From: Candidatus Limnocylindrales bacterium | GTDB taxonomy: Bacteria; Chloroflexota; Limnocylindria; Limnocylindrales; CSP1-4 | Assembly: GCA_049520815.1 (NCBI GenBank) | Contig: JBEKPL010000007.1 | Coordinates: forward strand, 3 to 64,002 | Direction of reading: 5' to 3' | Length of the DNA stretch: 64,000 bases | Shown: piece after piece, positions 8,515 to 64,000 of the stretch | Layout: every line of letters begins with the position of its first letter | Position numbering within the stretch: position 1 is the first letter of the stretch | Notes under the pieces: generated by a model | The model's input: the letters and a program-made list of their open reading frames with translations, nothing else | Told to the model about the DNA's origin: nothing | The model's database searches: none | Position numbers and translations under genes: made by a program

Positions 8515-8573
8515 GCGGCCTCAGAGTCTAGCGGGGTCTCGGGCGGCGCGGGCTCGTCGCGACGCGCGGGTCG

Positions 8574-11907: not shown

Positions 11908-11951
11908 GCGACCGGACGCCGCACTGAGCCGGCTTCCCATCCCGGGCGGTG

Positions 11952-12656
11952 CTAGCGGCGAGCCGCCCTCGCCAGCGCCTGCACGTCCGGCACGACGATG
12001 CTGTCGCGCTCGAACCGCAGCAGGCCGTCTTCCTCGAACTCGCGGAGTAGCTTGTTTACGCTCTGCCGGGTAGCTCCGATCATGGCCGCGAGATCGCTCT
12101 GGGTGAGGGGTGCGTCGAGCCGGATCGAGCCGTTCGGTAGTGCTTCACCGTTCTCCTCCGCCAACCGTGCCAGCCGTGCCGCAAGCCGGCCCGTCAGGTC
12201 GAGGAAGTGCAGCTCGGCGACATGAGTCGTCAGGCGCCGCAACTCCCTGACGAGCGCCGTCAGGAGAGCGTCTCGAATCGCCGGCTCCGTATTGGCCAGG
12301 GCTCGGAACTGATCGCGTGGCAGCGCCAGCGTATCCGTGGCTTCCAGGGCGATCGCACTGGCCGAGCGCGGCGCTCCATCGAGCAACGCCAGCTCGCCCA
12401 GGAAATCGCCGCGTCTGAGAGTGGCAAGGATCGCCTCCTCACCCTCGTCCGATGGCACGACGACTTTGATGGCGCCCGAGGCAACGATGAACAGGGCATC
12501 GCCAGGATCGCCTTCGTGGAACAGGACCTCGCCACGGCGGAAGTGGCGAACCCTGAGCGTTCGAGCGATGGCCTGCAAGGTTTCGGGACCCAGACCCGAG
12601 AAGAGACGGCAGCGCCCCAGTGCCTCGAGGGCGAATTCGGATTGCAGCATGGCCAC
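11952..12656 (-). CDS. Crp/Fnr family transcriptional regulator
   Basis: cNMP-binding domain (RLFSGLGPETLQAIA...GDFLGELALLDG.PRSASA) plus a C-terminal HTH (LTQSDLAAMIGATRQSVNKLLREFE). Confidence 0.9.
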   Translation of the reverse strand: MAMLQSEFALEALGRCRLFSGLGPETLQAIARTLRVRHFRRGEVLFHEGDPGDALFIVASGAIKVVVPSDEGEEAILATLRRGDFLGELALLDGAPRSASAIALEATDTLALPRDQFRALANTEPAIRDALLTALVRELRRLTTHVAELHFLDLTGRLAARLARLAEENGEALPNGSIRLDAPLTQSDLAAMIGATRQSVNKLLREFEEDGLLRFERDSIVVPDVQALARAARR

Positions 12657-12776
12657 ATCCTAGACGGCGGCGCCGCCGCAGGAGAAGGTGATCGGTCAGG
12701 CCGCGATTCGGCGCGGGCCGCCCTCGGATCGCCACCCAGGCCTGTCCGCGACCCGCCCGGGCCTTAGGATTGGGGC

Positions 12777-28059: not shown

Positions 28060-28196
28060 ATGTTCTGCCGTTCAACGGCAAACGCTCCGATGCGTGCCCT
28101 CCAGCAGCCTTTGCCCGAACGGGACATCGATCCATCCCGGCTGCTGCCGATGCCGGCACGAACGCCGCTCCCCCGCGCCGCCGTGCCGGCGGCAGG

Positions 28197-29147
28197 CTAC
28201 TTGGTGGTTATGTCCACCACGTGGTCTACGAAGAACTTCTGCTGCTGGGTCTCCAACGGCAGCAGGATGTAGAAGCCCTTCGCATCCTTCGGTACCGAAA
28301 CGGTCGTGTTCCACGTCGCGCTGCCCCCATCCGCGGGCGTGATCGGAACATCTATTAGGTGGGGGCTCTCATAGAACCCGTACATCACGCCGTCCGCGCC
28401 GATGACGGGAGGATTGCCGATGTGCACATATGCTCGATCGTGGCTTGGGTTCGTGCTCTTCCAGTCGAACTCGAATCCCGTGTCAGTGCGCTTGACATCA
28501 GTCAACTGGACGGTGCAATCATTGATACCTTTGATCACGGCGTCAGACTTCTCCACTTTGGCGGCCGCCACCGTCTGCGCAACCGGATACTTCGTGTCCG
28601 TGACAACCTTGTCCAGATCCAGGTTGAAGGTGCCCTTTGTCGCCTGCGAGGCCCGGTAGTAGTTGAATGGCCCGTCGATGTACGCGTAGTCGATCGAGAG
28701 TTTCTCACCCGCAGCCTTCTTCACACCAGCGCATTCAACGTAGAGCAGCTGCGTCTCCGGTTTGTCCACCGTCCCGCCCGTATATCCCTTCATGATGAAG
28801 CCGGGGGGAAGAAACCAGCCGCTGCTGTTTACGAACACTGCAGTGCCTACGAACACTGTGCCGCAATCGCTGCTCTTGCCCGTCGAGTCCGTCACTCTGG
28901 CCTTGCTGGCCGCGACATTCATCGCGCTCCAGTCATTCTCGTTATTCCGTATGGAGAGATCCACGTGCAGCGAGCCGCTGACGTCTGAGACCCCGGTGAC
29001 AATCGCGGCCCAGCCCTTTCCGGCAGCCGGTGTGGGCGTATCGAACGTGATCGGTGGAACGATGTAGTCGCAACCGCTGACCACCAATCCAAAGACGACG
29101 ACTGCGGCCAGCGTCAGTCGCATACTCATCCTGCAATCACCGTTCAT
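28197..29147 (-). CDS. hypothetical lipoprotein (two beta-rich repeats, DUF4352-like by eye)
   Basis: Signal peptide with lipobox (LAAVVVFGLVVSGC). Translationally overlaps the upstream permease stop (GTGATGA). Lower GC than araA. The exact start is uncertain (29147, 29129 or nearby). Confidence 0.65.
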   Translation of the reverse strand: MNGDCRMSMRLTLAAVVVFGLVVSGCDYIVPPITFDTPTPAAGKGWAAIVTGVSDVSGSLHVDLSIRNNENDWSAMNVAASKARVTDSTGKSSDCGTVFVGTAVFVNSSGWFLPPGFIMKGYTGGTVDKPETQLLYVECAGVKKAAGEKLSIDYAYIDGPFNYYRASQATKGTFNLDLDKVVTDTKYPVAQTVAAAKVEKSDAVIKGINDCTVQLTDVKRTDTGFEFDWKSTNPSHDRAYVHIGNPPVIGADGVMYGFYESPHLIDVPITPADGGSATWNTTVSVPKDAKGFYILLPLETQQQKFFVDHVVDITTK

Positions 29148-30741
29148 CACTGGTTACCGCCGTACAAGATTGGGGCTAGGTATCCTGTCATTAGCCAGTA
29201 GTCTGCTGGCACGTCCGTTCCGCCGTCCACGGCGTCGACTGTCTTCGTCTGCCCTTGGTACGTGACAGTCGTCGAGTACTCGAAGCAGGCGCCACAGGGC
29301 GTATGGTGCGCCGAGTAGAAGTTGGGGGTGAAGAAGCCGAGATCGTTGATCTGCTTCAGGAGTGCAGTGACCTGGTCTGCCGCGACATGCGTCGTCTTGG
29401 TGTTGTTGGCGCCGTAGTCGGAGACGATCCGGCCGTCGGGGTAGATGGCATACAGCTCGTCGACGCAGGTCGTGCCTCCGTTGCGCTCGTACACGATCAC
29501 GGCGTCACCCTGAGCGAGGGTCTTCGCTTGGTCAGGTCTCATTGGCTGGAGCGTGCAAGTGATAGTCGCCCCCGACTGGAACACGTTCGGGACGATCACG
29601 AACACGGTCGTCCCGACAACGGCGGCGACCACCACGGCCCCTACGCTGCGGCGAACTGCCTTTCTCTTGTACCACACCGTCGGCACTCTGCGCATGGCAT
29701 GACCGCCCGCACGGGCGCGCCCCACCGCCGCCGCGTTCCAGGCGGCTACGGTGCTCTGGATGACGATGAAAAGGAGCATCAGCGCACCGATGAAAATGTA
29801 CACCAACCAGGAACTCAGCTGCCCGTTGTACTGGATCAGGCTCTGTATCAGAGACGTGATCATGACGCCGACCAGAGCGCCGATCAGATACCCTTCCCCA
29901 CCAGTCAGCGCGACGCCGCCGATGACTACCGCCGCGATGGTGGTCAACTCGAAGCCAGTACCATGATTCCCACGTCCGGACATGACGTAGATGCTGTACA
30001 AGATGCCTGCCAGAGCGGAGCAGAAGCCGCTGATGACGTATACAAGAACCTTGGTCCGATCTACCGGCAACCCCATGAAGCGGGCGGATATCTCGTTCGC
30101 TCCGTTGCCGCCGCCCATCGCGTACATCGTCCGACCGAAACGCGTGTAGTGGGCCAAATACAGACCGACAAAGAACACGGCCATGGCCACGACTACAAGA
30201 TACGTGATGTAGTCGCCCCGTTTCGTGGCTGGATCAGCCAGTCCCGGGATCAGGATCTTCGTCTGTCCGAGTGTGGTGTAGGTTGCATCACTGATCCGTA
30301 CTTCGGCATCGCTGATGACGTAGCACAGACCGCGAGCCAGCCACATACCGGCCAGCGTGGCGATGAACGGCTGCACCTTCAAGTACGTAATGAACAGACC
30401 CATCACGAGCCCGAAGGCCATCCCGATCAGGAGCACGATAGGGAAGATCACCCACGGGTTCCAGCCCATGTAGAGAAGCGACGCCGCAACCACCGTCGCC
30501 AGGGCAAGGATGCCGCTGACGGAGAGGTCGATGCCGCCCGAGATGATCACGAACGTCTCACCTACGACGGTCAGGATCAGGAACGGCGCCGCATCGAACA
30601 GGGTGAAGAACGCTTGCCCATCCCGCATCACCGAATACGAGAAAACGCCCCACACATAGACGACCACAAACAGTGCGATTGTCGCGCCGAGAGGCAGGAA
30701 CTTGCGGTTCCGTCCCAGACTTGCGCTCAATGTCGCGATCA
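29147..30741 (-). CDS. sugar ABC transporter permease (YjfF-like) fused to an extra TM helix and a roughly 150-aa extracytoplasmic C-terminal domain
   Basis: Start at ATG 30741, in an ATGA overlap with the upstream permease stop. About 330 aa of ribose-type permease are followed by KRKAVRRSVGAVVVAAVVGTTVFVIV and then a Cys-containing soluble domain (HHTPCGACFEY). Confidence 0.85.
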
Positions 30742-31827
30742 TCGGGCTGCCTCCTGACGCACGAACCCCCTGCTCACTCCGCGAACGTATCTCTGTACCT
30801 GCTCGGCATACAGAAGGAGGACCGCCACAACAACCATGGCCTTGACCGCGGTGATCGCGCTCGCAGCAACACCGAAGGACAGCATCGACGTGATCGTGGT
30901 CTGCAGGACCAATGCGCCAATGGCGCTGCCCAGCAGTGAGAACCGCCCGCCAGCTCCCAGGAGCGTTCCGCCGATGACGACCGCCAGGATCGCATCCAGC
31001 TCTGAGTACAGCCCGACCTGGTTCGCGTCCGACGTTCGGATATTGGAGGCTACGATCAGGCCGGCGATGCCCGCACAGAAACCACAGAAGGCGTACGAGA
31101 AGAGTATGATCCCTCGCTGGTTGATGCCGCTGTAGAAGCTCGACCGGGCGTTGATCCCAACGGACTCGACGAAGAGCCCGATGGGCGTTCTCCACGTCAC
31201 GAGCCAGGCTCCTATGAACACGGCTGCGGCGAGGTACAGCGAGAACGGCAACACGATGAAGCCGTTGCCGATGTAGGCGTAGGTGTCATTGAAGATGATG
31301 ATCTGCATGGCATTCGTAATGAGCTGGGCGATCCCTCGGCCCGCGATCATCAGAACCAGCGTCGCAACCAGCGGCTGCATCCGCCCGTACGAGACGAGCA
31401 CTCCATTCCAAAGGCCGCAGAGCGTGGCGATGACCATTGGAACGACGATCACCATCCAGAGGGGAGCCCAGCTGTACTGGGGGTTGTTGATGAACAACCT
31501 TGGATCGGTGAGGTTCAACCCGACGATGGTCGGGTTGATCATGAGGCAGGCCGTCGAAGATGCGATCGCCATGATCGCACCCGTTGAGACGTCGACTCCC
31601 CCGGTCGCGATCACGAGCGTCATGCCCATGGCCAGGATCATCGTCGGCGAACCGTGCACCAGAATGTCGATCAGGTTGCCGTAGAGATGGCCGCCCTTCA
31701 ACTCGATCTTGAAGAAGCCGGGGATCAAGAAGAAGTCGGCGATGAGAATCAACAGCAGGGCAGCGACCGGCAGAAAAAGCATGCTCTCGGTGAACCTGCT
31801 CCACGTGCGAGAGATCGACCCTCTCAT
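30739..31827 (-). CDS. sugar ABC transporter permease (YtfT-like, ribose-type)
   Basis: 362 aa, polytopic, with a GGVDVSTGAIMA-type motif. Overlaps the ATPase stop. Confidence 0.9.
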   Translation of the reverse strand: MRGSISRTWSRFTESMLFLPVAALLLILIADFFLIPGFFKIELKGGHLYGNLIDILVHGSPTMILAMGMTLVIATGGVDVSTGAIMAIASSTACLMINPTIVGLNLTDPRLFINNPQYSWAPLWMVIVVPMVIATLCGLWNGVLVSYGRMQPLVATLVLMIAGRGIAQLITNAMQIIIFNDTYAYIGNGFIVLPFSLYLAAAVFIGAWLVTWRTPIGLFVESVGINARSSFYSGINQRGIILFSYAFCGFCAGIAGLIVASNIRTSDANQVGLYSELDAILAVVIGGTLLGAGGRFSLLGSAIGALVLQTTITSMLSFGVAASAITAVKAMVVVAVLLLYAEQVQRYVRGVSRGFVRQEAAR

Positions 31828-33347
31828 GACGCACTTCCTGCAATCGCTTGCATGATTCCCTTCTCATCGACTTGGCCGGAGAATTCGTTCACCTTGGCCC
31901 GGTCCCGCATGACGACGATACGATGGCTTGTCCGTAGCACCTCGTCCAGCTCAGACGAGACGAACACGCATGACTTGCCCTCCTCAGCGAGCGAGAGGAC
32001 CAGCTTCTGGATGTCAGCCTTCGTCCCGACGTCGATACCCCGAGTAGGCTCGTCGAGGATGAGGAGTCGGGGATTGGCAGCCAGCCAGCGAGCGAGGATC
32101 ACCTTCTGCTGATTGCCGCCACTCAGGTTCTTGACCAGCTGGTCCGCTGTCGGAGTGGTGATGTTCAGCAACTTGATGTACTTGTCCGCGATCTCGTATT
32201 GCTGGCTCGTGCCGATCCGCCTGAACCAACCGAGGCCGGCCTGCAAAGCGAGGATGATGTTCTCCCTGACGCTGAGGTCGGCGACGATGCCTTCGACCTT
32301 CCGGTCTTCCGGGCAGAGCGCCACGCCCCGAGCGATTGACCCGGCGGGAGAGTAATCCTTGACCGGCTTTCCATCCATGACTACCTTGCCGATGTCCGGC
32401 CTATCGATGCCGAAGAGCAGGTTCACCAGTTCAGTGCGGCCCGACCCCAGCAAGCCGGCAATGCCCACGACCTCGCCTGCGTGAAGCACCAGGTCGAAGG
32501 GTTCGATCGAATTGGTGAGGCCTACATCATCGGCTTTGAGGAGGGGCTCCGCGGAGATGTGGCGGCTGCTCTCGATCTTGTGGGCGGTCATGTCGTCGAG
32601 GTCGGCGATGGTCCGACCAAGCATCAGGCGGATAAGCTCGAGTCGAGACACGGAAGCCGTCGCATACGTGCCGACGAGCGCACCGTTCCTCAGAACCGTG
32701 ACCCGGTCAGAAACCTCGTAGACCTGGTTGAGGAAGTGGGTGATGAAGATGATCGCGATGCCCTCGCTCTTGAGCTTGCGCATGACCTTGAACAGCTGCG
32801 CCGTCTCGTGGGCGGTAAGGCTGGACGTGGGCTCGTCGAAGATCAGGACCTTGGCGTTGGAAATGGCAAGAGCTCGGGCGATAGCCACCATCTGCTGGAT
32901 TGCGACCGAGTAGGAGCCGAGCGGCTGGGTTACGTCGATGTCGATGTCCAGCTGCTTCAAGAACTCTCTGGCTCGGGCGTTGAGAGCCTTCCAATTGATG
33001 GCGATGCCCAGGCGCCTGGGCTGCCGCCCAATCAGGAGGTTCTCGGCGACGGTCAGGTTCGGGCACAGGTTGATTTCTTGATACACCGTGCTGATGCCGA
33101 GCTGCTGAGCCTGCAACGGAGAGTGGATCGAGACGATCCGACCGTCGAACTCAATGGTGCCCTCGTCGGCACGATCGACCCCCGTCAGGATCTTGATCAG
33201 CGTCGACTTCCCCGCTCCGTTCTCGCCCACAAGAGCATGGATCTCTCCCCTGCCGACGGAGAAGCTCACCTTCTGGAGCGCATGGACACCAGGGAACGTC
33301 TTGTCGATGCCCGTCATTACGACGATGTCGCGATTGGTGTCTGGCAT
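31824..33347 (-). CDS. sugar ABC transporter ATP-binding protein with duplicated ATPase domains (YtfR/RbsA-like)
   Basis: Walker A (GENGAGKST) and LSGGNQQK in the second half. About 500 aa, the length of a fused double-ATPase sugar importer. Confidence 0.93.
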   Translation of the reverse strand: MPDTNRDIVVMTGIDKTFPGVHALQKVSFSVGRGEIHALVGENGAGKSTLIKILTGVDRADEGTIEFDGRIVSIHSPLQAQQLGISTVYQEINLCPNLTVAENLLIGRQPRRLGIAINWKALNARAREFLKQLDIDIDVTQPLGSYSVAIQQMVAIARALAISNAKVLIFDEPTSSLTAHETAQLFKVMRKLKSEGIAIIFITHFLNQVYEVSDRVTVLRNGALVGTYATASVSRLELIRLMLGRTIADLDDMTAHKIESSRHISAEPLLKADDVGLTNSIEPFDLVLHAGEVVGIAGLLGSGRTELVNLLFGIDRPDIGKVVMDGKPVKDYSPAGSIARGVALCPEDRKVEGIVADLSVRENIILALQAGLGWFRRIGTSQQYEIADKYIKLLNITTPTADQLVKNLSGGNQQKVILARWLAANPRLLILDEPTRGIDVGTKADIQKLVLSLAEEGKSCVFVSSELDEVLRTSHRIVVMRDRAKVNEFSGQVDEKGIMQAIAGSAS

Positions 33348-33541
33348 TGAATCACCTTATGGTCTTGCGGCTCGACAGAGCCAAGAGGCACGCGCCGAGA
33401 GGACTGAGCGGCGTTCCATCGCACTGTGGACGCAGAGTGCGTTGATGACAGTGCCGTTGGTAGGCCAAGGGCGGACCACCCGGCCCGAGTTCCAAGTCGC
33501 GCCACCTTGGGCCCACCGTTCGGCCCAGTAGACCGTTCATC

Positions 33542-33576
33542 GAAAGGGAGAAGCGGCGTCGCCGCTTCTCCCTTTC
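33542..33576 (-). terminator. 35-bp perfect palindrome between the SBP and ATPase genes (intercistronic hairpin, attenuator or mRNA stabiliser)
   Basis: GAAAGGGAGAAGCGGCG-T-CGCCGCTTCTCCCTTTC with 17-nt arms, 52 nt downstream of the SBP stop. Confidence 0.5.
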
Positions 33577-33627
33577 TCGTCCTATTCGCTACATCGACTC
33601 CGAAGGGTCAACGTACCGAACGGGGCC

Positions 33628-34629
33628 TTAGTACTTGCGAGTGGCCAGGATGGCCTTCAGCGCGTCAGCACCCTGCGCGGCGAAGAACTTGCCCTCCTGC
33701 GAGGGGACCCACGCCGGCTGGCCGGTAACGCCGTTGAGGCCGTCAAGGGCGGCCTTGTAGACCTGGGGGGCCAGGAGCGGGTTGCACTCGATGTCAGCGC
33801 CCAGCTCACCGGTGATGAGGTACTTGAAGCCGTCGGCGGTCGCATCGACGCCGACGAACACGATGTCCGTGCCGGCCTTCATGCCAGCTGCATCGACGGC
33901 CTGGATGCCGGCGATGGCCAGTTCGTCGTTGTGGCCATAGACGCCATTGATCTGGTTCGGGTACTTCTTGAGGAAGGCCTCCATGATGGCCTTACCCTGC
34001 ACGGGGTCCCAACCCGGGGCGGACTGCATGTCCAGGACCTTCATGCTGCAGAGACTGAGCTTCTCGCGGAAGCCCTTGTCGCGGTCGATAGCGGCCGAAG
34101 CGGCCTGGTCGCCGCCGATCTCGACGACGTTAGTGCCGCTCTTGCCCTTCAGGAGGTCGCACATGGCGGCGGCGCTGTCCTGGCCTTCCTTGTCGAAGTC
34201 CGAGCCGATGTACGTGTAGTACAGGTTCGAGGCGGCGTCGATGCGGCGGTCTTCGATAACGACCACCTTGTTGGCGGCCTTGGCTGCCTTGAGGACGTCG
34301 TCATAGCCGGCCGTGCCAACGGCCGCGAGAACGATCACGTTGACCGCCGGGTCCTGGATGAACCCGTTGAACGCCGTGATCTGGTTCTCGATCTTGTTCT
34401 GGGAGTCGTAGAACTTGAGGGTGATGCCGTTGGCGGTCGCGGTCTCCTTGAAGGAGGAGGTGTTCGCGGCTCGCCAGCCGGACTCGGACCCGGTCTGGAT
34501 GAACCCGACCGTCATGTCCTTGTACGTGTAGACCTTAGGGCTTGGGCTCGCGGCCGACGACGAGCAAGCGGCAAACACTGTCGCCAGTACGATCGACAGG
34601 CCGATCCGAAGTGATCGAGACTTCGTCAT
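33628..34629 (-). CDS. ABC transporter substrate-binding lipoprotein, YtfQ-like (furanose-binding family)
   Basis: Lipobox (VFAACSS). VGFIQTGSESGWRAANTSSFKE resembles the remembered E. coli YtfQ sequence VGFSQVGSESGWRAAET. Confidence 0.9.
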   Translation of the reverse strand: MTKSRSLRIGLSIVLATVFAACSSSAASPSPKVYTYKDMTVGFIQTGSESGWRAANTSSFKETATANGITLKFYDSQNKIENQITAFNGFIQDPAVNVIVLAAVGTAGYDDVLKAAKAANKVVVIEDRRIDAASNLYYTYIGSDFDKEGQDSAAAMCDLLKGKSGTNVVEIGGDQAASAAIDRDKGFREKLSLCSMKVLDMQSAPGWDPVQGKAIMEAFLKKYPNQINGVYGHNDELAIAGIQAVDAAGMKAGTDIVFVGVDATADGFKYLITGELGADIECNPLLAPQVYKAALDGLNGVTGQPAWVPSQEGKFFAAQGADALKAILATRKY

Positions 34630-35180
34630 TGGTTGGTCTCCGTGTGTGTTACGGGCAGTAGTGGAGCTCTTCGTGCAACCGTCCGGATTGAGCAGCTCTC
34701 CGCTGCCTCGTCGGGATGTGCGACTCCGACTTGTGCCAGGTCCTCGCCTCCATTCGTCTCAGGTAGGGTCTGACGCCATTGGCACCTCCTCCAAGACGGC
34801 CAGCAGGGTCAGGTTCTCGCCGCGCAGGCAGCAGATCCTCGGCGCGGGAGTCCTCCTCCCCGGTTTCCTTCACTCCCCAGAGCACTGATGTGTAGGGCCT
34901 AGATGGATCAGCGATGGGCGATGCCATTGCGACGCGGCGCAAGGCGACTCAGTATGGCAGATCGTCTTCCGGCGCCATCGAACAGCCTTGCCGAGGTGCC
35001 GGCGATATTGCCTGCGGTCCCCGTTTGCGCGTCCCCCAGTCCGCCGCCTCCGCAGCGGGCTGCTGCGTAACGCGCTTCGACCTTGGCTTCACAAGGATAG
35101 TGCTGAAGTCGCTGGCAAGCAACCGTGATGGGGCTTCTCCTGGCCCCTGACCTCGTCGTTGCGGGTTTGTTAGGCCGATG

Positions 35181-35224
35181 TTATCGTTCCCGGTAACGGT
35201 AACGGGAGCGCTAGCCAGGCTAGC
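35181..35224. promoter_or_regulatory. candidate LacI-family operator region
   Basis: Imperfect palindrome TTATCG-TTCC-CGGTAA (35181-35196), the direct repeat GGTAACGGTAAC, and a perfect palindrome GCTAGCC-A-GGCTAGC (35210-35224). These lie 110-150 nt upstream of the LacI-type regulator. Confidence 0.3.
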
Positions 35225-35333
35225 ATGTGCGTCAGAGGCGAGTCAATAGGCCAAAGACGTGCGTCAAGGGGCCAAGCCATGCGCTGGCCACGCAGTAGTT
35301 GCCGGCTCTCGACCAGCGGGAAGGATTAGGGAC

Positions 35334-36479
35334 ATGGCCAGAGGGAAGCGCCTGACCATCCGCGACGTTGCTGCGGCCGCCGGCGTCTCAACTCAGACCG
35401 TGTCTCGCGTGATCAACAACCGGCCCGATGTGGCCCCGGGGACCCTCGAGCGAGTCCGGGAAGTCATTCGAGAGACAGGCTACGCGCCCAACATGCTCGC
35501 CCGTGGCTTGACTCAAGGTAGAAGCCACGTTCTGGGGGTGGTCGCCTACGGGCTCGAGTACTTCGGCCCCTCTCGCGTCGTCAGCGCAATCGAGCGCCAG
35601 GCCGCCGAGATGGGCTACGGGATCTCGCTCAATCTGATTCTGGAGCCCGAGACAGACAACGTAGACAACGTTCTCAGAAGCCTGCGCTCACGCCAGGTCG
35701 ACGGGATCATCTGGGCGATTCCGGAGGTCAGCAACAACCGCGCCTGGTCGCGAACGAAGAGCGCCGATCTGCCCGTCCCTGTGATGCTGGTTGGGGGCAT
35801 GGCCGGCACGACCTACCTCCCCTCCATAGGCATCGACAATGCCGCGATCGGCTGCCTGGCCACCGAGCACCTGCTCGCCGGCGGCGGTCGCTACGTGGGC
35901 ATCGTGACCGGCCCGCTAACCTGGTGGGAGGCTCAGCAGCGCCTGGACGGCTGGCGCCAGACGATCGCGGCGGCCGGACGCGAGGTCGAGGAACGCCTCA
36001 TCTTCGAGGGCGATTGGACCGTGTCCAGCGGAGAGCAGGGCCTGTACCGAATGCTCGAGGCCTGCCCCGAGATAGACGCCGTCTTCGCCAGCAACGACCA
36101 GATGGCTCTCGGCGTTCTCCACGCGGCTCACAGGCTCGGCCGGAAGGTGCCAGACGAGCTCTCCGTCGTAGGCGTAGACAACATCGCCGAGGCATCGCAT
36201 TTCTGGCCGCCCCTGACGACGGTCCACCAGCCGCTGCAGGACGCCGGGGCGCTCGCCGTCCGGGAGATCGACCTGCTGATCAAGAAGTCGCGCCAGACAC
36301 GGCGCACGCAGGAGTCGGCCCCCGAGGTCATCCTGCTGCAGCCCCAGCTCATCGTCCGTGAAAGCGCCCGCCGTGTGGAGCCAGTCCAGCTCTCGGTTCC
36401 GCTGCCGGAGACCATAGCTCTGCCTGCCCAGCCTGCCCTCAGCAACCAGCCGATCGAGGCCCGGACCCCCGTCAGCTGA
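35334..36479 (+). CDS. LacI family transcriptional regulator (probable arabinose-operon repressor)
   Basis: HTH (TIRDVAAAAGVSTQTVSRVINN) plus a periplasmic-binding-protein-like effector domain. Divergent from the ara operon. Confidence 0.9.
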   Translation: MARGKRLTIRDVAAAAGVSTQTVSRVINNRPDVAPGTLERVREVIRETGYAPNMLARGLTQGRSHVLGVVAYGLEYFGPSRVVSAIERQAAEMGYGISLNLILEPETDNVDNVLRSLRSRQVDGIIWAIPEVSNNRAWSRTKSADLPVPVMLVGGMAGTTYLPSIGIDNAAIGCLATEHLLAGGGRYVGIVTGPLTWWEAQQRLDGWRQTIAAAGREVEERLIFEGDWTVSSGEQGLYRMLEACPEIDAVFASNDQMALGVLHAAHRLGRKVPDELSVVGVDNIAEASHFWPPLTTVHQPLQDAGALAVREIDLLIKKSRQTRRTQESAPEVILLQPQLIVRESARRVEPVQLSVPLPETIALPAQPALSNQPIEARTPVS

Positions 36480-36507
36480 ACGCCCGGCCGTAGGGCGCAC
36501 TGCGGCA

Positions 36508-43206: not shown

Positions 43207-44661
43207 ATGATCCCGCGCGGCCTGACGGGCCGGATCGTCCTGGCGTTCGTGGGGTTGGGCGTCGCGTTGCTGATTGCCGTCAGCGCCAGCCTGTTCCTGG
43301 TGCTGCGCGACGCTCACCAGGCCGAGACAAAGTCGTCCCTGGGCAACCAGGTCGTGCTCATCCAAGCTGCCGTGTTCCTCCACCAGCCGGCGGGAGTCGG
43401 CCAGGCGCAGATCCAGCAAGCCATCAGCGACTATTCGGGCCCCATCGTCGCCGACGGCGGCTACATCATCATCCTGGGCCCAAAGGGCGCGACCAGGTTC
43501 GTCGTCGGCAATCCATCCTCGATGGACGTCCCCGCGGCGCCGACGGGCTCTGCCCCGACCAGGGTCGACACGTTCAAGACGGCCGACGGAAAGCAGTACA
43601 TATACATCGAGCCGAACACGAGCGGGACCCGCGGATTCACGCTGTACGTCGCGGTCCCTGACCGTTCGGCCCAGCGGGCGTTGAGCGACCTGTCTCGAGC
43701 GCTCGTCATCGTGGTGATCGTCCTGCTTCTCGTGGGTGTGCCGATCGCCTGGCTCCTGTCACGCTCGATGACCGGCCCGATGCGGCGCCTCGCCCAGGCG
43801 GCCAGCGACCTGCCAACCCGATCGGGCGAGTCGGCGCCTCTGCCCGTTGAGGGACCGACCGAGGTCAGGGCCCTGACCGAGCGGTTCAACGCCATGGCCC
43901 GCGAGCTCGCGGCCACGCGGCACGAGGAGACGCAGATGCTGGCCAACCTGCGCCACGATCTGCGGACGCCGCTCACCAGCATCGCCGGCTTCGCCGAGGC
44001 GATCGCCGACGGAACCGCTTCCGGCGACCGAGCCACCGCGGCCGCCCGGACCATCGCCGAGGAGGCGCAGCGCCTGGAGCGGCTGGTCGGCGAACTGGGA
44101 GTGGTCGAACGACTGCGCGAAGGACCGGCGGCGCTGCGGCCCGAGGAGCTCGACGCCACGGCCCTGCTCGAGGACGCCGCCGCGCGCTTCGAAGTCAGAG
44201 CCGCCGCGCAGGGCGTCAAATTCGAGGTGTCCGGCGCCGCTCCCGGCGAGCCCGAGCTTGCCTTCACGGGTGACAGGCTCGCGGCGGAGCGGATCCTCCA
44301 GAACCTCGTCGTGAACGCCTTGTCTGTCCTGCCGAAGGGCGGGCACGTGTGGCTGCGGGCGACTCGGCTCCAGCTCCCCGGTCGACCGCTCAGGATCTCC
44401 ATGAGCGTCACCGACGACGGCCCCGGCTTCCCGCCGGGCACCATCGAGAAGGTCTTCGAGCGTTTCTACAGAGCCAATCCCTCTCGCAGCGGCGGCGGCT
44501 CCGGCCTCGGACTGGCCATCGTCCGCGAACTGGCGAGGGCTCACGGCGGCGAGGCCTGGGCGGAGAACGTCGCGCCGCACGGGGCCCGGGTATCCGTGCT
44601 GCTGCCCATAGTGCCCCTGATCCCCCTCGAAGCGAGCGAGGCGGCCGCCGTCGACGAGTAG
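43207..44661 (+). CDS. sensor histidine kinase
   Basis: Two TM segments, HAMP, H-box (NLRHDLRTPLTSI), N-box and G-boxes (DDGPGF, GGGSGLGLAIV). Confidence 0.9.
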   Translation: MIPRGLTGRIVLAFVGLGVALLIAVSASLFLVLRDAHQAETKSSLGNQVVLIQAAVFLHQPAGVGQAQIQQAISDYSGPIVADGGYIIILGPKGATRFVVGNPSSMDVPAAPTGSAPTRVDTFKTADGKQYIYIEPNTSGTRGFTLYVAVPDRSAQRALSDLSRALVIVVIVLLLVGVPIAWLLSRSMTGPMRRLAQAASDLPTRSGESAPLPVEGPTEVRALTERFNAMARELAATRHEETQMLANLRHDLRTPLTSIAGFAEAIADGTASGDRATAAARTIAEEAQRLERLVGELGVVERLREGPAALRPEELDATALLEDAAARFEVRAAAQGVKFEVSGAAPGEPELAFTGDRLAAERILQNLVVNALSVLPKGGHVWLRATRLQLPGRPLRISMSVTDDGPGFPPGTIEKVFERFYRANPSRSGGGSGLGLAIVRELARAHGGEAWAENVAPHGARVSVLLPIVPLIPLEASEAAAVDE

Positions 44662-58300: not shown

Positions 58301-58836
58301 GGATGATCGCCGGCAGCCCGATCTTTTGGAGAGCCTCATGCGCCGCCCCGTCGCGCTCCTCGTCCGTTTCGCCCTCGATGATCCATGACGGCGCGTACGG
58401 CTGGCCGATCCGGTCCAGGAGGTCGCGGAACTTCTCCCGGTCCTCGGCCATCTCGATCGCCTCCAGGGTCCAGGGGCGTGCCGATGAGCCGGACGTTGTA
58501 GCGGTCGAGCACGCCGGCCTTGGCCAGCGCCACGGCCAGGTTGAGGCCGGTCTGGCCGCCCAGTCCGGCGAGCAGCCCCTCCGGCCGCTCTTTGGCGATG
58601 ACCTGCTCGATGGCCTCGACGGTCAGCGGCTCGAGGTAGACCACGTCCGCCACCTCGGCGTCGGTCATGATCGTGGCCGGGTTCGAGTTGACCAGGATCG
58701 TCCGGACGCCCTCGGCCCTCAGCGCGCGGCAGGCCTGCGTGCCGGCATAGTCGAACTCGGCCGCCTGGCCGATGACCACGGGCTTGGGCTTGGGCAGGCG
58801 CGGCGCCGTCGCCCGCGCCTCCGGCTGAGCCGTCAT
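55386..58836 (-). pseudogene. carB: carbamoyl-phosphate synthase large subunit, reading frame broken by a 7-bp tandem duplication
   Basis: The N-terminal 120 codons (58836 to about 58476; [21 protein letters not shown]...VRLIGTPL) and the remaining 1021 codons ([12 protein letters not shown]... to 55386) are in different frames. The junction is TCCAGGG-TCCAGGG (58462-58475). Deleting one copy restores [14 protein letters not shown]. Confidence 0.85.
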
Positions 58837-58925
58837 ACAAAAAAGCCACCGGCCTCGCGGGCTCGGTGGTTCAGCTTACAGGCGACCATGGACCTCCTTC
58901 CCGGCCTCTCTGGACCGGTACGCCG
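58833..58925 (-). promoter_or_regulatory. PyrR-type pyrimidine attenuator or leader upstream of carB, with an 18-codon uORF
   Basis: The minus strand reads GGUCCAGAGAGGCCGG (58905-58914 core), matching the remembered PyrR-binding consensus RUCCAGAGAGG. AAGGAGG and a uORF follow (58889 to 58833, [18 protein letters not shown]). The uORF TGA overlaps the carB ATG. Confidence 0.55.
58839..58869 (-). terminator. intrinsic terminator within the carB leader
   Basis: Minus strand: CCACCGAGCC-CGCGA-GGCCGGTGG followed by CUUUUUUG. It ends 2 nt before the carB ATG. Confidence 0.65.
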
Positions 58926-59207
58926 GCCTCACAGGACCGGCCGCAAAGGTTGCGCGTAGGTTATCACGAAGGCAAACAGGGTACGCGCCAGAGCGGGTAC
59001 GGGCCAGGGCCCCGATCAATGACACAACGTGTTGCGCATGCGGGCCGCAGTTCCGCCGCGTACGGTCAAGCGCCCGCTACGCCCGCTCGATGGGATTGTC
59101 AAGCCGACGCCGCAGCGACGTACTCGACGCCTGTCATCCCCTCGAAGAGACAATCTTGAGTCCAGAGCGTCGCGCCGTTCGCACGTGTGGCGGCCAGGAT
59201 GATGGCA

Positions 59208-59261
59208 TACCAACGAAAACACCAAGCCGAAGGCCAGGTCAGCTGCAAGCGCGGGTTGGGC
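59208..59261 (-). other. terminal attC candidate (degenerate)
   Basis: The minus strand has R'' GCCCAAC (59261-59255), exactly complementary to GTTGGGC at the start of this cassette. A possible R' GTTGGTA lies at 59214-59208. Only weak internal pairing was seen. Confidence 0.35.
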
Positions 59262-59265
59262 CGCC

Positions 59266-59493
59266 CTATCCCAATAGCGAAACCACATTCTGGACAACTA
59301 CGCCAATACTCTCTAGCTCTATACGGGCTCGTTCATCAAACTTCGAGATCGCGTCTGCCACAGCCACCAATCGAAAATCGCGCTCGCTGGTTTCATATAT
59401 GGACGTCCGCGGGCAGTTTGGGTAATTACACCCCAAAAATGCTAATGTGGAAATACCCAGCATTCTAAGAATATGCCTGAACCGAGAGTGCAT
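59266..59493 (-). CDS. hypothetical small protein, second ORF of the last cassette
   Basis: ORF ending 5 nt before the R'' box. ATG at 59493 (MHSRFRHILRML...). No family recognised, and it could be non-coding. Confidence 0.3.
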   Translation of the reverse strand: MHSRFRHILRMLGISTLAFLGCNYPNCPRTSIYETSERDFRLVAVADAISKFDERARIELESIGVVVQNVVSLLG

Positions 59494-59531
59494 CTGCAAG
59501 ACTTCGGAAGTCTCTCCCCCATCCGCTAGAA

Positions 59532-60158
59532 TCACCAAGAATTCCAGTGGATCTTCTCTTCTACTTTGACGGGATACGGTTCAATCTTTGACGCATTATC
59601 AGACGGGTATCCTAGCGCCAGGTAGCACGGGATCTCGTAATCCGATGGGCATTTGACGACCTCTTTTATATGCTCGATCTCAGCACCCATGGGGATTCTA
59701 GTAACGCCGTAAATGCCCTCTGCGGAGGCTGCGATAAGCATGTTCTCGATGCAGCACCAGATCGAGGCGAAGGGATTTAGGGCTGATAGGCAGTCAGGCT
59801 TCAAAAGCGGCCACGGCTGCCGGAAGAAAGGCAGAATCAGGCATGCGGCTTCGAGGAGCATCCTGTATTGCTTCGGAACGGCGATGAGGTAACTCTCGCG
59901 TTGGATGGGGTCCGTGCTGCCCCAGCTGTCGAGCCAGGCCGCCACCCCTTCTCTCGTGAAATGTTCCTGCACTTTGTCGATCAATCTCAACCGGATCGGC
60001 TGATCCTGAACCACGACGAATTCCCATTCGCGCATGTGGTTGTGCGAAGGTGCGCGGAGACCCGCGTCGACTATCCTTCTGATGGTCTTTGCATCGATAG
60101 CCTTGGGTTGAAAATCCCTTACAGATTTTCTTTTGAGAATAGCCTCATATGCATCCAT
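59532..60158 (-). CDS. nitroreductase family protein
   Basis: AILKRKSVRDFQPKAIDAKTIRRIVDAGLRAPSHNHMREWEFVVV is typical of the nitroreductase N-terminus. The RBS is AAGGGAGA. Confidence 0.85.
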   Translation of the reverse strand: MDAYEAILKRKSVRDFQPKAIDAKTIRRIVDAGLRAPSHNHMREWEFVVVQDQPIRLRLIDKVQEHFTREGVAAWLDSWGSTDPIQRESYLIAVPKQYRMLLEAACLILPFFRQPWPLLKPDCLSALNPFASIWCCIENMLIAASAEGIYGVTRIPMGAEIEHIKEVVKCPSDYEIPCYLALGYPSDNASKIEPYPVKVEEKIHWNSW

Positions 60159-60358
60159 ACTCGATTTCTGTGTCTCCCTTTTGTTTTGTAATCACTTAGA
60201 GGGCAGACTCAGCTCCTCGAAGCAGCAGGGAGCAGTGAGAGAGACGGCAGTGCGATGAGCAATAACCGCCTGGCGGACGTAGTCCAGTGTGGTGATTACC
60301 CACAAGTATGAGAATAAGGAAGACTCTGCTGCGATATGGTAAAGTAGGCTCACCACCA

Positions 60359-60418
60359 GCCCAACGTGTGCGGCTTGAGCTGCGAGCGCAGCGAGTCTGC
60401 TCGAAGCCGTCGTTCGGA
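60359..60418 (-). other. attC site (60 bp)
   Basis: Minus strand: TCCGAAC-GA-CGGCTTCGAGC-N18-GCTCAAGCCG-CACAC-GTTGGGC. R' is a perfect GTTRRRY. There is one bulged base in the L'' arm. The site starts 9 nt after the stop of ORF 60428..61105. Confidence 0.7.
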
Positions 60419-60427
60419 AAGCCCAGC

Positions 60428-61105
60428 CTACCCACTGATTGAGTTCGCTTCCTTTTCGTAGCCAATCTGCCAGAAGTACATGTCCACGAGCTTCATGAGC
60501 GGATAGCGGATCTCACTGCTATGCTCGATGCGTGCCTGCTCATCCTGCAGCACAGACAGATGCGCGTCGCAGAAGGCGAGAACACGTTCCACAAACAGGT
60601 CATTCAGGGAGGAGTACGCGAGCCCCTCGCCCCTGAAGCCATCGATGAAGTAGCGGTCGCAGGCGGGTAGGCACCCGAAGGTTCCGAGAATGACCTTCGT
60701 GATGAGCGTGTCTGTTGGCCGTGCAGACCCCGTGGCTCGGGCGAAGGGCTTGTACGCCTCCCTGATTCCCTCGATCAGATCGTGGATACAAGGTACGAAC
60801 TGAGCATCCGTCGCTCTCGCGCCAAGATCAGCATCCCAGAGCGCATCGAAGCGCGTTTCCGCGACCAGCTCGATGACGTCGCGGTGCACGGTATATGCAC
60901 GCTGCAGCAGGAAGCTGGATCCGCGGTACATGCCCCAGCTGGCGAGGTAACAGGCAAGCTGGAGAGCGGCATGATCGCGATCAGCGACGAGGCCGTCCCG
61001 CCTGGCTTGCCGGAAATAACCATAGCAGTGGTCCCATGAGCGGTAGCGGTGATGCTCGCCAACAGCGGCACCGTGGTATGCCTGTATCACGCGCTGAATG
61101 CTCAC
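60428..61105 (-). CDS. hypothetical protein (cassette-borne)
   Basis: 225-aa ORF (HHRYRSWDHCYGYF...) that fills the cassette. GTG start 27 nt after the cassette boundary. Confidence 0.6.
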   Translation of the reverse strand: MSIQRVIQAYHGAAVGEHHRYRSWDHCYGYFRQARRDGLVADRDHAALQLACYLASWGMYRGSSFLLQRAYTVHRDVIELVAETRFDALWDADLGARATDAQFVPCIHDLIEGIREAYKPFARATGSARPTDTLITKVILGTFGCLPACDRYFIDGFRGEGLAYSSLNDLFVERVLAFCDAHLSVLQDEQARIEHSSEIRYPLMKLVDMYFWQIGYEKEANSISG

Positions 61106-61126
61106 AACCTCACTTCACCGTGGTCT

Positions 61127-61254
61127 TCCGAACGGACTGGCTCAGCGGCAGCGGCGGGACTGGCGAGACTTTTTCTCGATTATCGCGCTTCTTCTGGCAA
61201 AACGCGCCGGTCTTCGAGCGGCAGAGCTGCTGTCCGTTGGAGCCGGTGTTAGCC
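61127..61254 (-). other. attC site (128 bp)
   Basis: Minus strand: R'' GGCTAAC (61254-61248) and R' GTTCGGA (61133-61127). A long imperfect stem pairs 61136-61155 with 61226-61247. G61239 and T61233 are extrahelical. Confidence 0.65.
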
Positions 61255-61479
61255 CGCATCTTGGATTAGGAAGACGCGAACTCTAGAGTTATCTTCTCTA
61301 CAGTTGCCAAATATGTGGTGACAATGGATCTCGCCGCCGACGCTTAATCATCGCATCGGCGCTGAGCGACGGTTTACCGACAATCACTCTTTTCACGCCA
61401 AATGACTGCACTGAAGAGCGGCATCGATTGAGGTATGCCCTTTCCAGGTGATGGTTAGCCGCTCTTCAGTGGTGTGAAA

Positions 61480-61728
61480 TTACTTGGCTACAACAGCCTC
61501 ACTTCCCTTCATGAGTTGACTCTTGAGGTCAGCCAAAGCTTTCGTATGCGCCTGCAATGAATTGAGTATTGCAGAAGCGAAAACCAGTTCTGCTGGCGTC
61601 GTCCAGCCGGGACGGTGAAGGATGATGATCAGCTTTTTCCAATCATTGGGCGTTGCTAGATGTGCCAAAGCGTCGCTCAAGCTGGTAACTTGTTTTTCGA
61701 GCTGCTGGATGTCGGTTGCACTTGCCAT
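61480..61728 (-). CDS. hypothetical small protein (cassette-borne, helical)
   Basis: 82-aa ORF with a GGAG-type RBS (GAGGAGACTACT before the ATG). No family recognised. Confidence 0.55.
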   Translation of the reverse strand: MASATDIQQLEKQVTSLSDALAHLATPNDWKKLIIILHRPGWTTPAELVFASAILNSLQAHTKALADLKSQLMKGSEAVVAK

Positions 61729-61902
61729 AGTAGTCTCCTCTATTCATTCAAGCGAGTATAGGTTTGCTGTGCGAAGGGGCAACAGATATGCACAGTGGGA
61801 TCTGCATTCTTCGACCGATTGCTCCAGTACCGGATGATCAAAGAATCATGAGCTGCTCCTTTCTATTGACGCGGACGGCGTCAATCTTCCATGCAAAATG
61901 CG

Positions 61903-61984
61903 GGCTAACGTTGCCGTTCACCTGCGGCGGACCGAGCGACCGGAGGGAGTGAAGACCGGCGTCAGGTGAAACGGCTTGTTCGGC
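61903..61984 (-). other. attC site (82 bp)
   Basis: Minus strand: GCCGAAC-AAG-CCGTTTCACCTG-N38-CAGGTGAACGG-CAAC-GTTAGCC. There is one bulged base in the L'' arm. The site starts 20 nt after the stop of ORF 62004..62837. Confidence 0.7.
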
Positions 61985-62003
61985 GTGTAATGAAGGCCGG
62001 TCA

Positions 62004-62837
62004 CTACCTCAGCCAACGCTTCCGGAGTCCGTCGTTCAACAGCGCTCGCGCATACTGCTCGGGGTTCTGATCCGAAGCATTCCTGGAGCGCGTTGCTTCG
62101 CCCGAGCGCTCAGCAGCGGCATACGCCGCGATGGTTCGCTCGATATCGCGGCCATGTTCTACGAAGAGCCGCTGCATGATCTCACGTTGGGTGGCCGGCC
62201 GAGAAGCGGTACCGTCGGCGGAGGAACTCCTCGAGGGTCGAAGAGTCGAGCCACGCGGTACGGAATGGCTCGGCGGGGTAGGAATCGGGCCGAAGAGCGC
62301 CGCGCGAGCGTTCGCCGGCCACTCATCAATTCGTTGATATCGAACCGCGTAGCCGAAATGCCACATCTTAGTGAGGATCGGCACAATCTCCGGAACATGA
62401 GCCCTCAGGAGGCGATCGGCATAATCTCCGAGGGCGACGACGCGCGTCGGTCGTAGGATTGCCAGTTCCTGGCGGAAGAAAGCCACGTGCGCGGCAAAAT
62501 CGTGGGGTAAGCCGCTCCTCAAAGCGCCCGCAGATCCACGCTTCTTGCAGAGATCGGTGAGATGCGCATTGCCGACCCCGAGACTCGTAAGGAGACCATA
62601 GAACTCGCGGCGATGCCGGTGCGACGACTCCCAAGGGCTTGTCGACGGCTGATCGCCAACGATGAACAGCGGCCCGGTCCCTAGGAAACCCCGGACCGGC
62701 CCGTCAGCAGGGAACCGCCACCAGTCAGGATGCCCGTCAATGATCGCCGCCAACTCGGCCAGCGTCGGTTCGTTCATGCTCTTACATTCCGCGATTGTAT
62801 TGCCGCCGAACACCGGGGATAAGCTGCGAGGCTCCAC
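62004..62837 (-). CDS. uracil-DNA-glycosylase-superfamily-like protein with an extra C-terminal helical domain (cassette-borne)
   Basis: GPLFIVGDQPSTS (resembles UDG motif A, GE.PG)...NAHLTDLCKKRG...VVALG. The true start may be ATG 62777 (MNEPTLAEL). Confidence 0.55.
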   Translation of the reverse strand: MEPRSLSPVFGGNTIAECKSMNEPTLAELAAIIDGHPDWWRFPADGPVRGFLGTGPLFIVGDQPSTSPWESSHRHRREFYGLLTSLGVGNAHLTDLCKKRGSAGALRSGLPHDFAAHVAFFRQELAILRPTRVVALGDYADRLLRAHVPEIVPILTKMWHFGYAVRYQRIDEWPANARAALFGPIPTPPSHSVPRGSTLRPSRSSSADGTASRPATQREIMQRLFVEHGRDIERTIAAYAAAERSGEATRSRNASDQNPEQYARALLNDGLRKRWLR

Positions 62838-62842
62838 TATGC

Positions 62843-63622
62843 TCAGGCTTCGTCAGCTTCATCCCCTTGTTCGCTGGCTCGTCTCCACCGCGAGATCGTA
62901 GATGACTCGGGATCCGTCGACCTCCGCCCCGAAAGCGAGAGCTCGCAGATTGGCGCCCCGAAGATCATCTGCGCTGCGTCCCTTGTAGAACCTCCCCGTA
63001 CCCGCCGGCAAGGGCGCCTTCTCGGGGAGATCGATAGGCCGATGACGACCCAGGCTGTCTCACCGGCCCCGAGCTGCAGCGAGCCGACCAACGAAGTACC
63101 CATCGACAGCCTCCCGGGCCAGCCAGGAACCGTGACGGGCGGCTCCACTAGAAGAATGGCGATCTCCGTGGCCTTGCCGTCGGGAGCATTGGGCAACCAG
63201 GTAACCTCAGGATCAGCAGGACTGATCGGACTCGTCACCGCCGCAGAGGGAGTGACGATCCGGAACGCCAGCACGATGCCGGGGGCAAGCGGAGACGGAC
63301 GCGGCCAGCGTTCCACGAAACGGTCGCGACCCTCCGGTACGACGTCCTTGACAGCAGACTCGAAGGTCTCGTGGGTGTACGCCGTGTGCCACTTACCCGA
63401 TGCGTGCAGGCTCGTCTTCAGGTGGCCGCCGAGTGGGCGGCATGCCAAGTACAGGTCGAGCCTCTCGCCGCCACCGTCGGTCCACAGCTTCCACGTTGCG
63501 GCTCGGTACCCGCCAACAGCAGCTATTCCGAACCTGAGCTCTTCACGTGGCATCGCAGATTGTCCAGCGAACAGTGAATGGATGGATCCGCGTAACTCCC
63601 CGAACACTGGCCGGGGTCGCAT
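62843..63622 (-). CDS. hypothetical protein (first cassette ORF), probably frameshifted near 63040
   Basis: The N-terminal 190 aa look protein-like, while the last roughly 65 aa are Arg/Ser-rich. An alternative frame from about 63050 gives [59 protein letters not shown] and stops at 62859. Confidence 0.45.
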
Positions 63623-63739
63623 AGCACGCCTGGTTCGATCGAAGCGGAGAGTGCCCGGACGGTGCGGTACGAGCGCGCTGTGTTAGGTCCGTGTGCTCGC
63701 CTCGGCGTCTTATGCGGATCGGCATAGCATCCTCCTCCC

Positions 63740-64000
63740 TCAGAGCCCATCCACCGGGCTGCGAACACCCGCCGGGCCGCGGTTGAGGACGTGGATGTAG
63801 ATCAATGGTGGTCTTGACGTCGGTGTGGCCCAGGAGCTCCTGCACCGTCCGGATGTCGTAGCCGGCTTCGAGCAGGTGCGTGGCGAAGGAATGGCGGAAC
63901 GTGTGACAGCTGGCCCTCTTGGTCAGTCCGGCCCGCGTAACCGCGTCCCGTACCGCCCGCTGGACCAGGGCCTCGTCGATGTAGTGGCGGCCCTGCTCGC
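63740..64000 (-). pseudogene. intI: integron integrase (IntI-type tyrosine recombinase), C-terminal part only, with a 1-nt frameshift before the catalytic Tyr
   Basis: Translates to [64 protein letters not shown]. After an extra base at about 63804, the +1 frame reads [20 protein letters not shown] and then a stop at 63740. Confidence 0.85.

Follow-up and report, generated by a model that had tools for sequence, protein, structure and literature searches.

Decay of an inverted-integrase, sedentary chromosomal integron in an uncultured Chloroflexota bacterium

Introduction

The closest described systems to the locus reported here are the inverted integron-integrase group, for example in Treponema denticola (Boucher, 2007 as cited in Cury et al., 2016, PMC4889954), and integrons or attC clusters that stand beside a degenerate integrase gene (intI). 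About one third of chromosomal intI genes are reported to be pseudogenes (Nemergut et al., 2008, PMC2426708), and 15 of 279 clusters of attC sites lacking integron-integrases (CALIN) have a nearby intI pseudogene (Cury et al., 2016, PMC4889954). Chloroflexi are listed among the integron-bearing phyla (PMC4889954, PMC2426708). Here, we analysed a gene cassette array at one end of a 64,000-nucleotide stretch of DNA (hereafter the window) of a Candidatus Limnocylindrales bacterium (contig JBEKPL010000007.1, assembly GCA_049520815.1). A preliminary description of positions 60359-61984 had read three well-formed sites as attC recombination sites of cassettes on the minus strand, and had delimited the cassettes by three exact 7-mer matches.

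We conclude, with a probability of about 0.93, that an uncultured Chloroflexota bacterium carries here, on the minus strand from 64000 to 59022, a sedentary chromosomal integron, which has an inverted integrase and is decaying. Its parts almost certainly follow in the order intI, attI, five gene cassettes, what remains of a sixth with toxin-antitoxin genes, a conserved leader and carB. As judged by sequence, the host is a Chloroflexota bacterium; the CarB protein of the window shares 77% amino acid identity with those of two Chloroflexota metagenome-assembled genomes and about 50% with the next matches. The GC content of the array is 55-63%, compared with 68-70% in the host.

Results

A chain of exact cassette boundaries

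According to established integron biology, from which both the recombination chemistry and the past circular intermediates are taken over, each cassette would formerly have been a circle with one complete attC. The bottom (plus) strand of this attC would have folded to a hairpin, which IntI recombined with attI, and the crossover would fall between A and C of the bottom-strand AAC, namely at G/TT on the top strand. A cassette of a linear array would then start with TTNNNN of its own attC and finish with its own R'' ... G. Because the crossover falls at G/TT, R'' should exactly complement GTTNNNN at the 5' boundary of its own cassette and not the neighbouring R' (the chain rule). The six 7-mers of the preliminary description were all located by script, as follows.

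GTTAGCC, 61909-61903, minus strand
GGCTAAC, 61254-61248, minus strand
GTTCGGA, 61133-61127, minus strand
TCCGAAC, 60418-60412, minus strand
GTTGGGC, 60365-60359, minus strand
GCCCAAC, 59261-59255, minus strand, 4 nucleotides (nt) from the stop codon 59268-59266

The three links proposed between them are exact, and their complementarity in fact extends over 12, 8 and 7 nt. In the 12-nt link, the 5' end of cassette 3 (GTTAGCCCGCAT) exactly complements ATGCGGGCTAAC at R'' of attC2. Two more links lie upstream of these three, through one further attC (attC0, 62875-62805) and then the attI crossover: R' of attC0 (GTTCGGC, 62811-62805) complements R'' of attC1 (GCCGAAC) exactly over 8 nt, and the attI core GTTCGCT (63572-63566) complements R'' of attC0 (AGCGAAC) exactly over 9 nt. 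The full chain has five exact links out of five, with lengths of 9, 8, 12, 8 and 7 nt. Within one in-array site, R'' and R' are complementary over 3-5 nt only, as expected if TTNNNN of an in-array R' is already part of the following cassette; it is thus specifically the 5' end of its own cassette that each R'' matches exactly.

The chance of such a chain was estimated from the R-box 4-mer frequencies of 25 related attC sites. An unrelated pair of R'' and R' matches at four of four positions in 7.7% of cases, giving p = 4.5 × 10^-4 for three links and p = 2.6 × 10^-6 for five. Of the 120 orders in which the five R'' boxes can be arranged, the observed one alone reaches 20 matches of 20. When 559 AAC..GTT pairs with a spacing of 45-160 nt were scored for arm complementarity across the window, attC0 and attC1 shared the top rank and attC2 and attC3 were also in the top ten, all within 2.5 kb.

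Covariance model and folding of the attC sites

Rfam has no attC family, and its models, run in gathering mode on the whole window and in E-value mode on 58700-64000, returned only tRNA-Leu and two chance matches. For lack of an Rfam family, we built an attC model (R1) from 25 attC sites of six other metagenomic loci beside related integron integrases; no window site was included. The consensus of these sites is RYYYAAC-AAGnn-CnT-n-CAGCnGAC ... GnGCTnATG-nnn-ACGTTRRRY. In their alignment, 88.5% of the cells are paired, compared with 27-38% once the partners are shifted by 1-3 columns, and many changes are two-sided. On both strands of the whole window (128 kb), R1 gave exactly four matches, all on the minus strand and all at the predicted ends. 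They are listed below with their extrahelical bases; the slash marks the crossover.

attC0, 62875-62805, minus strand, 71 nt; R'' AGCGAAC, R' G/TTCGGC; extrahelical bases at 62860 and 62853; 50.1 bits, E = 6 × 10^-10; not in the preliminary description
attC1, 61984-61903, minus strand, 82 nt; R'' GCCGAAC, R' G/TTAGCC; extrahelical bases in the T run 61971-61969 and at 61962; 54.1 bits, E = 7 × 10^-11
attC2, 61254-61127, minus strand, 128 nt with a long variable terminal structure; R'' GGCTAAC, R' G/TTCGGA; extrahelical bases at 61240/61239 and 61233; 36.3 bits, E = 1 × 10^-6
attC3, 60418-60359, minus strand, 60 nt; R'' TCCGAAC, R' G/TTGGGC; extrahelical bases at 60403 and 60396; 30.8 bits, E = 3 × 10^-5

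The next-best match in the window scored 16.2 bits (E = 0.08). It is isolated at 43611-43670 on the plus strand, has GCCGAAC...GTTCGGC ends, lies in GC-rich coding sequence and is probably due to chance. The four sites scored 5-7 bits on the opposite (plus) strand, which serves as a control matched for composition and palindromes and reveals a strand asymmetry. R1 found no match in two integron-free Chloroflexota carB loci (L002 and L003). GGCTAAC at 61460, tried as an alternative R'' for cassette 3, was rejected, as it offers 7-nt complementarity against 12 nt at 61254 and R1 has no match there.

Inverted core sites (a 5' R'' that ends in AAC and, 55-140 nt away, a 3' R' that starts with GTT) occur at these four sites, and a fifth site has R'' only. 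When the plus (bottom) strand was folded as DNA by unconstrained minimum free energy, AAC/GTT of the R boxes and the L arms were paired in all four. The folds are rod-like, with a central spacer of 2-3 unpaired nt and 6-bp helical segments parted by single bulges. Both in the folds and in the model alignment, the bulges lie at top-strand positions 16 and 23 from the first R'' base, that is, on the '' arm of the bottom strand; the extrahelical bases of attCaadA7 are G16 and T23 (Nivina et al., 2016, PMC5027507). The extrahelical bases named in the preliminary description (G60403, A61971, G61239 and T61233) agree with this within the ambiguity of base runs, and T61962 and T60396 are added to them. 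The z-scores of the fold energies are -2.5 for attC1, -1.0 for attC2 and -0.7 for attC3, significant for attC1 only. Because fold energy fails for attC2 and attC3 in this GC-rich DNA, we used architecture and the covariance model as the discriminating evidence.

Folding and covariance scoring were among the checks that the preliminary description had proposed for its three sites. The folds have the R-box/L-box architecture, with a significant z-score for one of the three; the model recovered all three, and one more, with exact ends and strand. Missing architecture and scores equal to those of controls, which had been named as outcomes against attC sites, were not what we observed.

Integrase gene and attI

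Directly upstream of the array lie an intI gene and a conserved attI, which support the preliminary reading of the sites as attC.

intI, 3' part, 63740-64000, minus strand; frameshifted and 5'-truncated, with the stop codon at 63742-63740, and translated in two frames
attI, 63566-63739, minus strand; from the intI stop to the crossover core GTTCGCT (63572-63566)

The defect of the integrase had not been noticed before. A +1-nt frameshift within 63812-63797, ahead of the catalytic Tyr motif, parts ..GHTDVKTT from LIYIHVL.., and no intact intI open reading frame (ORF) with the catalytic tyrosine is present, owing to this frameshift and the truncation. We repaired the frame and extended the gene with L001, a 5.5-kb Logan contig (SRR7028477) that is 100% identical to the window over 58923-64000 and runs 432 nt further. 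The product matched the IntI-specific NCBIfam profile TIGR02249 (integron integrase), the additional domain included, with 324.9 bits (cutoff 265), covering profile positions 106-315 only; about 105 N-terminal codons are absent. The motif ..ALDRKYPNAPTDWRWQWVFP.. is present. Of roughly 8000 IntI homologues, thousands show 80-93% identity. The gene reads towards the cassettes, in the same orientation as in all seven related loci, and tblastn found no second intI in the 64-kb window. Upstream of intI, L001 carries about 60 nt resembling carB codons 153-172 (85% amino acid and 90% nucleotide identity to the carB of the window).

The attI contains an imperfect palindrome, CTATGCCGATCCGCATAAG, at ~63727-63709 and repeated YTAYGCG motifs, which are candidate IntI-binding sites. 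In an eight-locus alignment of the 170 nt past the intI stop, conservation is strong up to a GTT, after which there is no similarity. In the window this GTT is 63572-63570, exactly where the chain rule puts the boundary, and BLAST homology to the related loci L082 and L083 stops at ~63570 and ~63560, respectively. The R'' of the first cassette complements the heptamer at the attI GTT in six of seven loci (the window, L082, L083, L086, L089 and L090) and not in L088. GTTCGGG at 63605-63599 was rejected as the first boundary, since it matches R'' of attC0 at 5 of 7 positions; GTTCGCT is preferred, with 9 nt and its position at the end of attI conservation. Blocks conserved between attI of the window (63566-63739) and of L082-L090 are an imperfect palindrome, TTATGCnGATCnGCATAA, just past the intI stop, GGCGTnTTATACGG mid-way and TTATGCGGATCnATCTAATCATT directly before the crossover GTT.

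Related loci

L082 is the orthologous locus of a close relative, with a full-length intI (311 amino acids, 88% identical), the same attI and the same distal flank. Its ten cassettes are all different from those of the window, and the chain rule holds there in six links of six. At its distal end stand a MazE/PIN cassette, the conserved flank and then carB (7668-8087 encodes CarB, 93% amino acid identity). One of its attC sites (6506-6643) is about 74% identical to attC2. With different cassettes at a fixed chromosomal site, the cassette content has therefore turned over, and such turnover is the hallmark of a sedentary chromosomal integron.

Of the 18 links tested in five relatives, 14 are exact over 7 nt or more, and those 14 average 9 nt; in L083, both of two links hold. 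L083 (European Nucleotide Archive (ENA) ERZ27294297 k141_1000625, 1-1300; IntI 91% identical) carries carA, carB codons 1-50, about 180 nt and a 5'-truncated intI. The C-terminus of its intI is intact, and different cassettes come after it. L001 and L083 thus represent two lineages in which a truncated intI adjoins a carB 5' fragment, at different breakpoints, and no such fragment is present in L082. Possible origins of this junction are tandem duplication or recombination between carB copies. In L089 (ENA ERZ25039513 contig_20098, 900-13100), chained attC arrays lie on both sides of an intI split in two ORFs, all in one orientation.

Gene cassettes

The cassettes delimited by the chain are listed below.

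Cassette 1, 62806-63571, minus strand; ORF 63553-62843, 236 amino acids, no family match; attC0
Cassette 2, 61904-62810, minus strand; ORF 62777-62004, 257 amino acids, weak similarity to the uracil-DNA-glycosylase superfamily; attC1
Cassette 3, 61128-61908, minus strand; ORF 61728-61480, 82 amino acids, no family match; about 225 nt non-coding; attC2
Cassette 4, 60360-61132, minus strand; ORF 61090-60428, 220 amino acids, no Pfam domain; attC3
Cassette 5, 59204-60364, minus strand; truncated at its 3' end, with two ORFs and the 5' half of an attC
Cassette 5, ORF 1, 60158-59532, minus strand; nitroreductase of 208 amino acids (Pfam PF00881, E = 3.5 × 10^-19)
Cassette 5, ORF 2, 59535-59266, minus strand; 89 amino acids, weak isochorismatase-like match

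All of these ORFs are on the minus strand in the orientation of the attC top strand, one per cassette and two in cassette 5. PADLOC, Pfam and NCBIfam assigned no function to four of the six. No identical cassettes were found elsewhere, the exact nitroreductase occurring on L001 only, and the scans of metagenome contigs used intI-region patterns (the carB'/intI junction and the intI end of the window), for which exact matching returned nothing.

Cassette 3 contains a perfect 14-bp inverted repeat (61409-61422 and 61458-61471; CACTGAAGAGCGGC and GCCGCTCTTCAGTG) with a 35-nt loop, 8 nt past the stop of its 82-amino acid ORF. The repeat includes the second GGCTAAC (61460-61454), and the sequence after this 7-mer agrees with the consensus of the attC 5' half (T15, A18). 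It could be a terminator, or the attC remnant of a fused cassette.

The cassette 4 protein has more than 3000 homologues at 55-75% identity, a large uncharacterised family for which Pfam, NCBIfam and PADLOC offer no model. In L093/L094, a homologue with 71% identity has an attC-like site 10 nt past its stop. Other homologues are found in non-cassette contexts; in L091/L092, the gene overlaps the end of an 871-amino acid AAA_13 ATPase gene and is near CTD6/MC2-domain genes. This suggests a context of conflict or defence for the family.

Distal end, leader and carB

Beyond the chain, the integron ends in decayed parts.

vapC (PIN-domain toxin), 3' remnant, 59099-59203, minus strand; from the alignment with L082 7051-7520 (PIN gene 6935-7315)
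Degenerate terminal attC, 59022-59104, minus strand; R'' ..TTGAC for ..AAC, R' GTTGTGT; its arms fit the consensus by eye

The preliminary description had closed its chain on GCCCAAC at 59261-59255. This 7-mer is real, but it heads a truncated half-attC and not a full site. The 5' half is intact from R'' to ~59225 and fits the consensus (GCCCAAC CCGCG CTT G CAGCTGAC), and no complementary half and no hairpin were found after it. A complete fifth attC at 59261 was rejected: it has no hairpin, scores 6.7 bits on R1, and the L082 alignment shows its 3' half deleted. From ~59203 the window holds the last ~100 nt of vapC from the terminal MazE/PIN cassette, which is complete in L082. With the 3' half of the attC absent and the L082 alignment entering in mid-vapC, a deletion has therefore joined the loop of this halved attC to an internal point of vapC.

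The degenerate terminal attC scores 9.0 bits on R1 (E = 0.36, filters off), and the conserved flank past it leads to carB (ATG 58836). The flank at 59206-58923 of the window is 87% identical to L082 7208-7490. Between the terminal attC and carB, the leader (58835-59022, minus strand) is 87-90% conserved with L082 and has a terminator-like hairpin with a T run before the carB ATG. It also contains CCAGAGAGG (58913-58905), a putative PyrR-binding loop motif; a PyrR-binding leader upstream of carB was not supported by Rfam, which gave no match.

The carB gene (minus strand, ATG 58836, ORF to 55386) has a 7-nt tandem duplication of CCCTGGA at 58475-58462, which is absent from L082 and L002 and shifts the frame after about codon 120. 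Barring an assembly variant at this duplication, carB therefore has the appearance of a pseudogene. Synteny around carB in L002 and L003 was uninformative for the far flank.

Elsewhere in the window, a lower-GC region (60-64%; 28000-36500) encodes an ordinary sugar-type ABC transporter operon (periplasmic binding protein, ATPase and two BPD_transp_2 permeases), adjoined by a divergent LacI-family regulator. The only tRNA in the window is tRNA-Leu (8427-8514).

Discussion

The proposal that the three sites are attC, and that the 7-mers mark true cassette boundaries, is supported by the covariance model, the folds, the adjacent intI and attI and the chains of the relatives. The architecture of the sites, the boundary chain, the identity of the integrase and attI and the turnover of cassettes between relatives are shown by the present analysis. 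If the hairpins were instead ordinary intergenic palindromes such as terminators or repetitive extragenic palindromic (REP)-like repeats, the 7-mer matches would be coincidental. Exact 7-mers do recur within about 1 kb by chance at ~5% each, GGCTAAC occurs twice in cassette 3, and the fold z-scores of two sites are unremarkable. However, the matches fall exactly at the ends of sites that were defined by structure, five of them consecutively (p ~2.6 × 10^-6), a model of attC built on other integrons matches the sites in a strand-asymmetric way, intI and attI lie next to them, and nothing comparable is found elsewhere in the window or in the control loci. Coincidence is effectively refuted. It is also very unlikely that the lesions of intI (frameshift and truncation) and carB are assembly or sequencing artefacts in a complete and functional integron. 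The source is a metagenome assembly and the sole other assembly, L001, may come from the same reads; on the other hand, L001 agrees with the window at 100% identity across 5078 nt, including the frameshift, carB is broken by a clean tandem duplication of 7 nt and not a homopolymer error, L083 likewise has a 5'-truncated intI beside a carB fragment, and the truncations of vapC and attC are large-scale lesions.

A different question is whether the array is a relic at all, since a functional integrase from another part of the genome may still excise and reshuffle its cassettes in trans. The four attC sites are structurally intact, with R-box complementarity perfect over 7-12 nt, more than one fifth of integron-containing lineages have more than one intI gene (PMC2426708), and the L089 arrays flank a split intI on both sides. 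The 64-kb window, however, holds no second intI by tblastn, and the distal end bears deletion and decay instead of clean site-specific events. We regard such activity as unlikely, though worth keeping in mind. More doubtful is the idea that the junctions of carB with truncated intI and the frameshifted carB mark rearrangements or segmental duplications that recurred between the carbamoyl-phosphate synthetase locus and the integron, with the arrays still turning over later via an integrase in trans. If true, a chromosomal integron would drive the rearrangement of a housekeeping locus, beyond being a passive gene store.

Several points weigh against a decaying sedentary integron as we describe it. 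Neither recombination nor a circular intermediate was observed. Because intI is incomplete, the locus, taken strictly, is an attC cluster beside an intI pseudogene. The second GGCTAAC (61460-61454) leaves a small ambiguity inside cassette 3, and by fold energy attC2 and attC3 do not stand out from GC-matched shuffles. The training sites of R1 were picked by the arm-complementarity scan and the chain rule, so the model is independent of the window sequence but not of these selection criteria, and its E-values are rough. Finally, the window and L001 may derive from the same reads, and so may not be independent witnesses to the frameshift of intI.

We nevertheless hold to the decaying integron. 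The marks of decay are the truncated and frameshifted intI, one halved attC, the truncated vapC, the degenerate terminal attC and the frameshifted carB. The platform is at present decaying, and its four intact cassettes would be mobile only with another integrase in trans.

The understanding of integrons is unchanged by this locus, as the boundary rule, the inverted layout, integrons of Chloroflexi and frequent intI pseudogenes have all been published. It adds one well-resolved chromosomal integron with an inverted integrase in Chloroflexota, and it shows that the rule by which R'' complements the 5' boundary of its own cassette is a reliable cassette delimiter even in high-GC, non-proteobacterial DNA. 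With it come a defined crossover in attI, an attC consensus specific to the clade and an intact orthologous copy from which the steps of decay can be read.

Compared with the inverted integron-integrase group, intI is likewise co-directional with the cassettes, attI lies downstream of the 3' end of intI, the integron is chromosomal and beside housekeeping genes, and the cassettes are mostly of unknown function together with toxin-antitoxin pairs. This inverted layout is common to all seven related loci examined. The locus differs in its uncultured Chloroflexota host, in the truncated and frameshifted integrase and in an attI specific to the IntI clade.

The sites themselves share with attCaadA7, attCoxa2 and the Vibrio cholerae repeat (VCR) (PMC5027507) R'' of RYYYAAC, R' of GTTRRRY, a crossover in the AAC triplet and an unpaired central spacer. 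As in the canonical attC of mobile integrons, extrahelical bases 16 and 23 lie on the bottom strand's '' arm and the terminal structure is variable, giving here 60-128 nt. Unlike in these canonical sites, the first extrahelical base of the bottom strand is not always G (C in attC0 and A in attC1), GCCGAAC and TCCGAAC depart from strict RYYY/RRRY, and the R-box complementarity of the circular form would usually exceed 7 bp (the mean in relatives is 9 nt among links exact over at least 7 nt).

With CALIN and integrons with intI pseudogenes, the locus has in common an attC cluster beside a non-functional intI. In contrast to them, attI and most of intI are still recognisable and L082 provides an intact orthologue; because of this orthologous copy, the decay can be reconstructed step by step.

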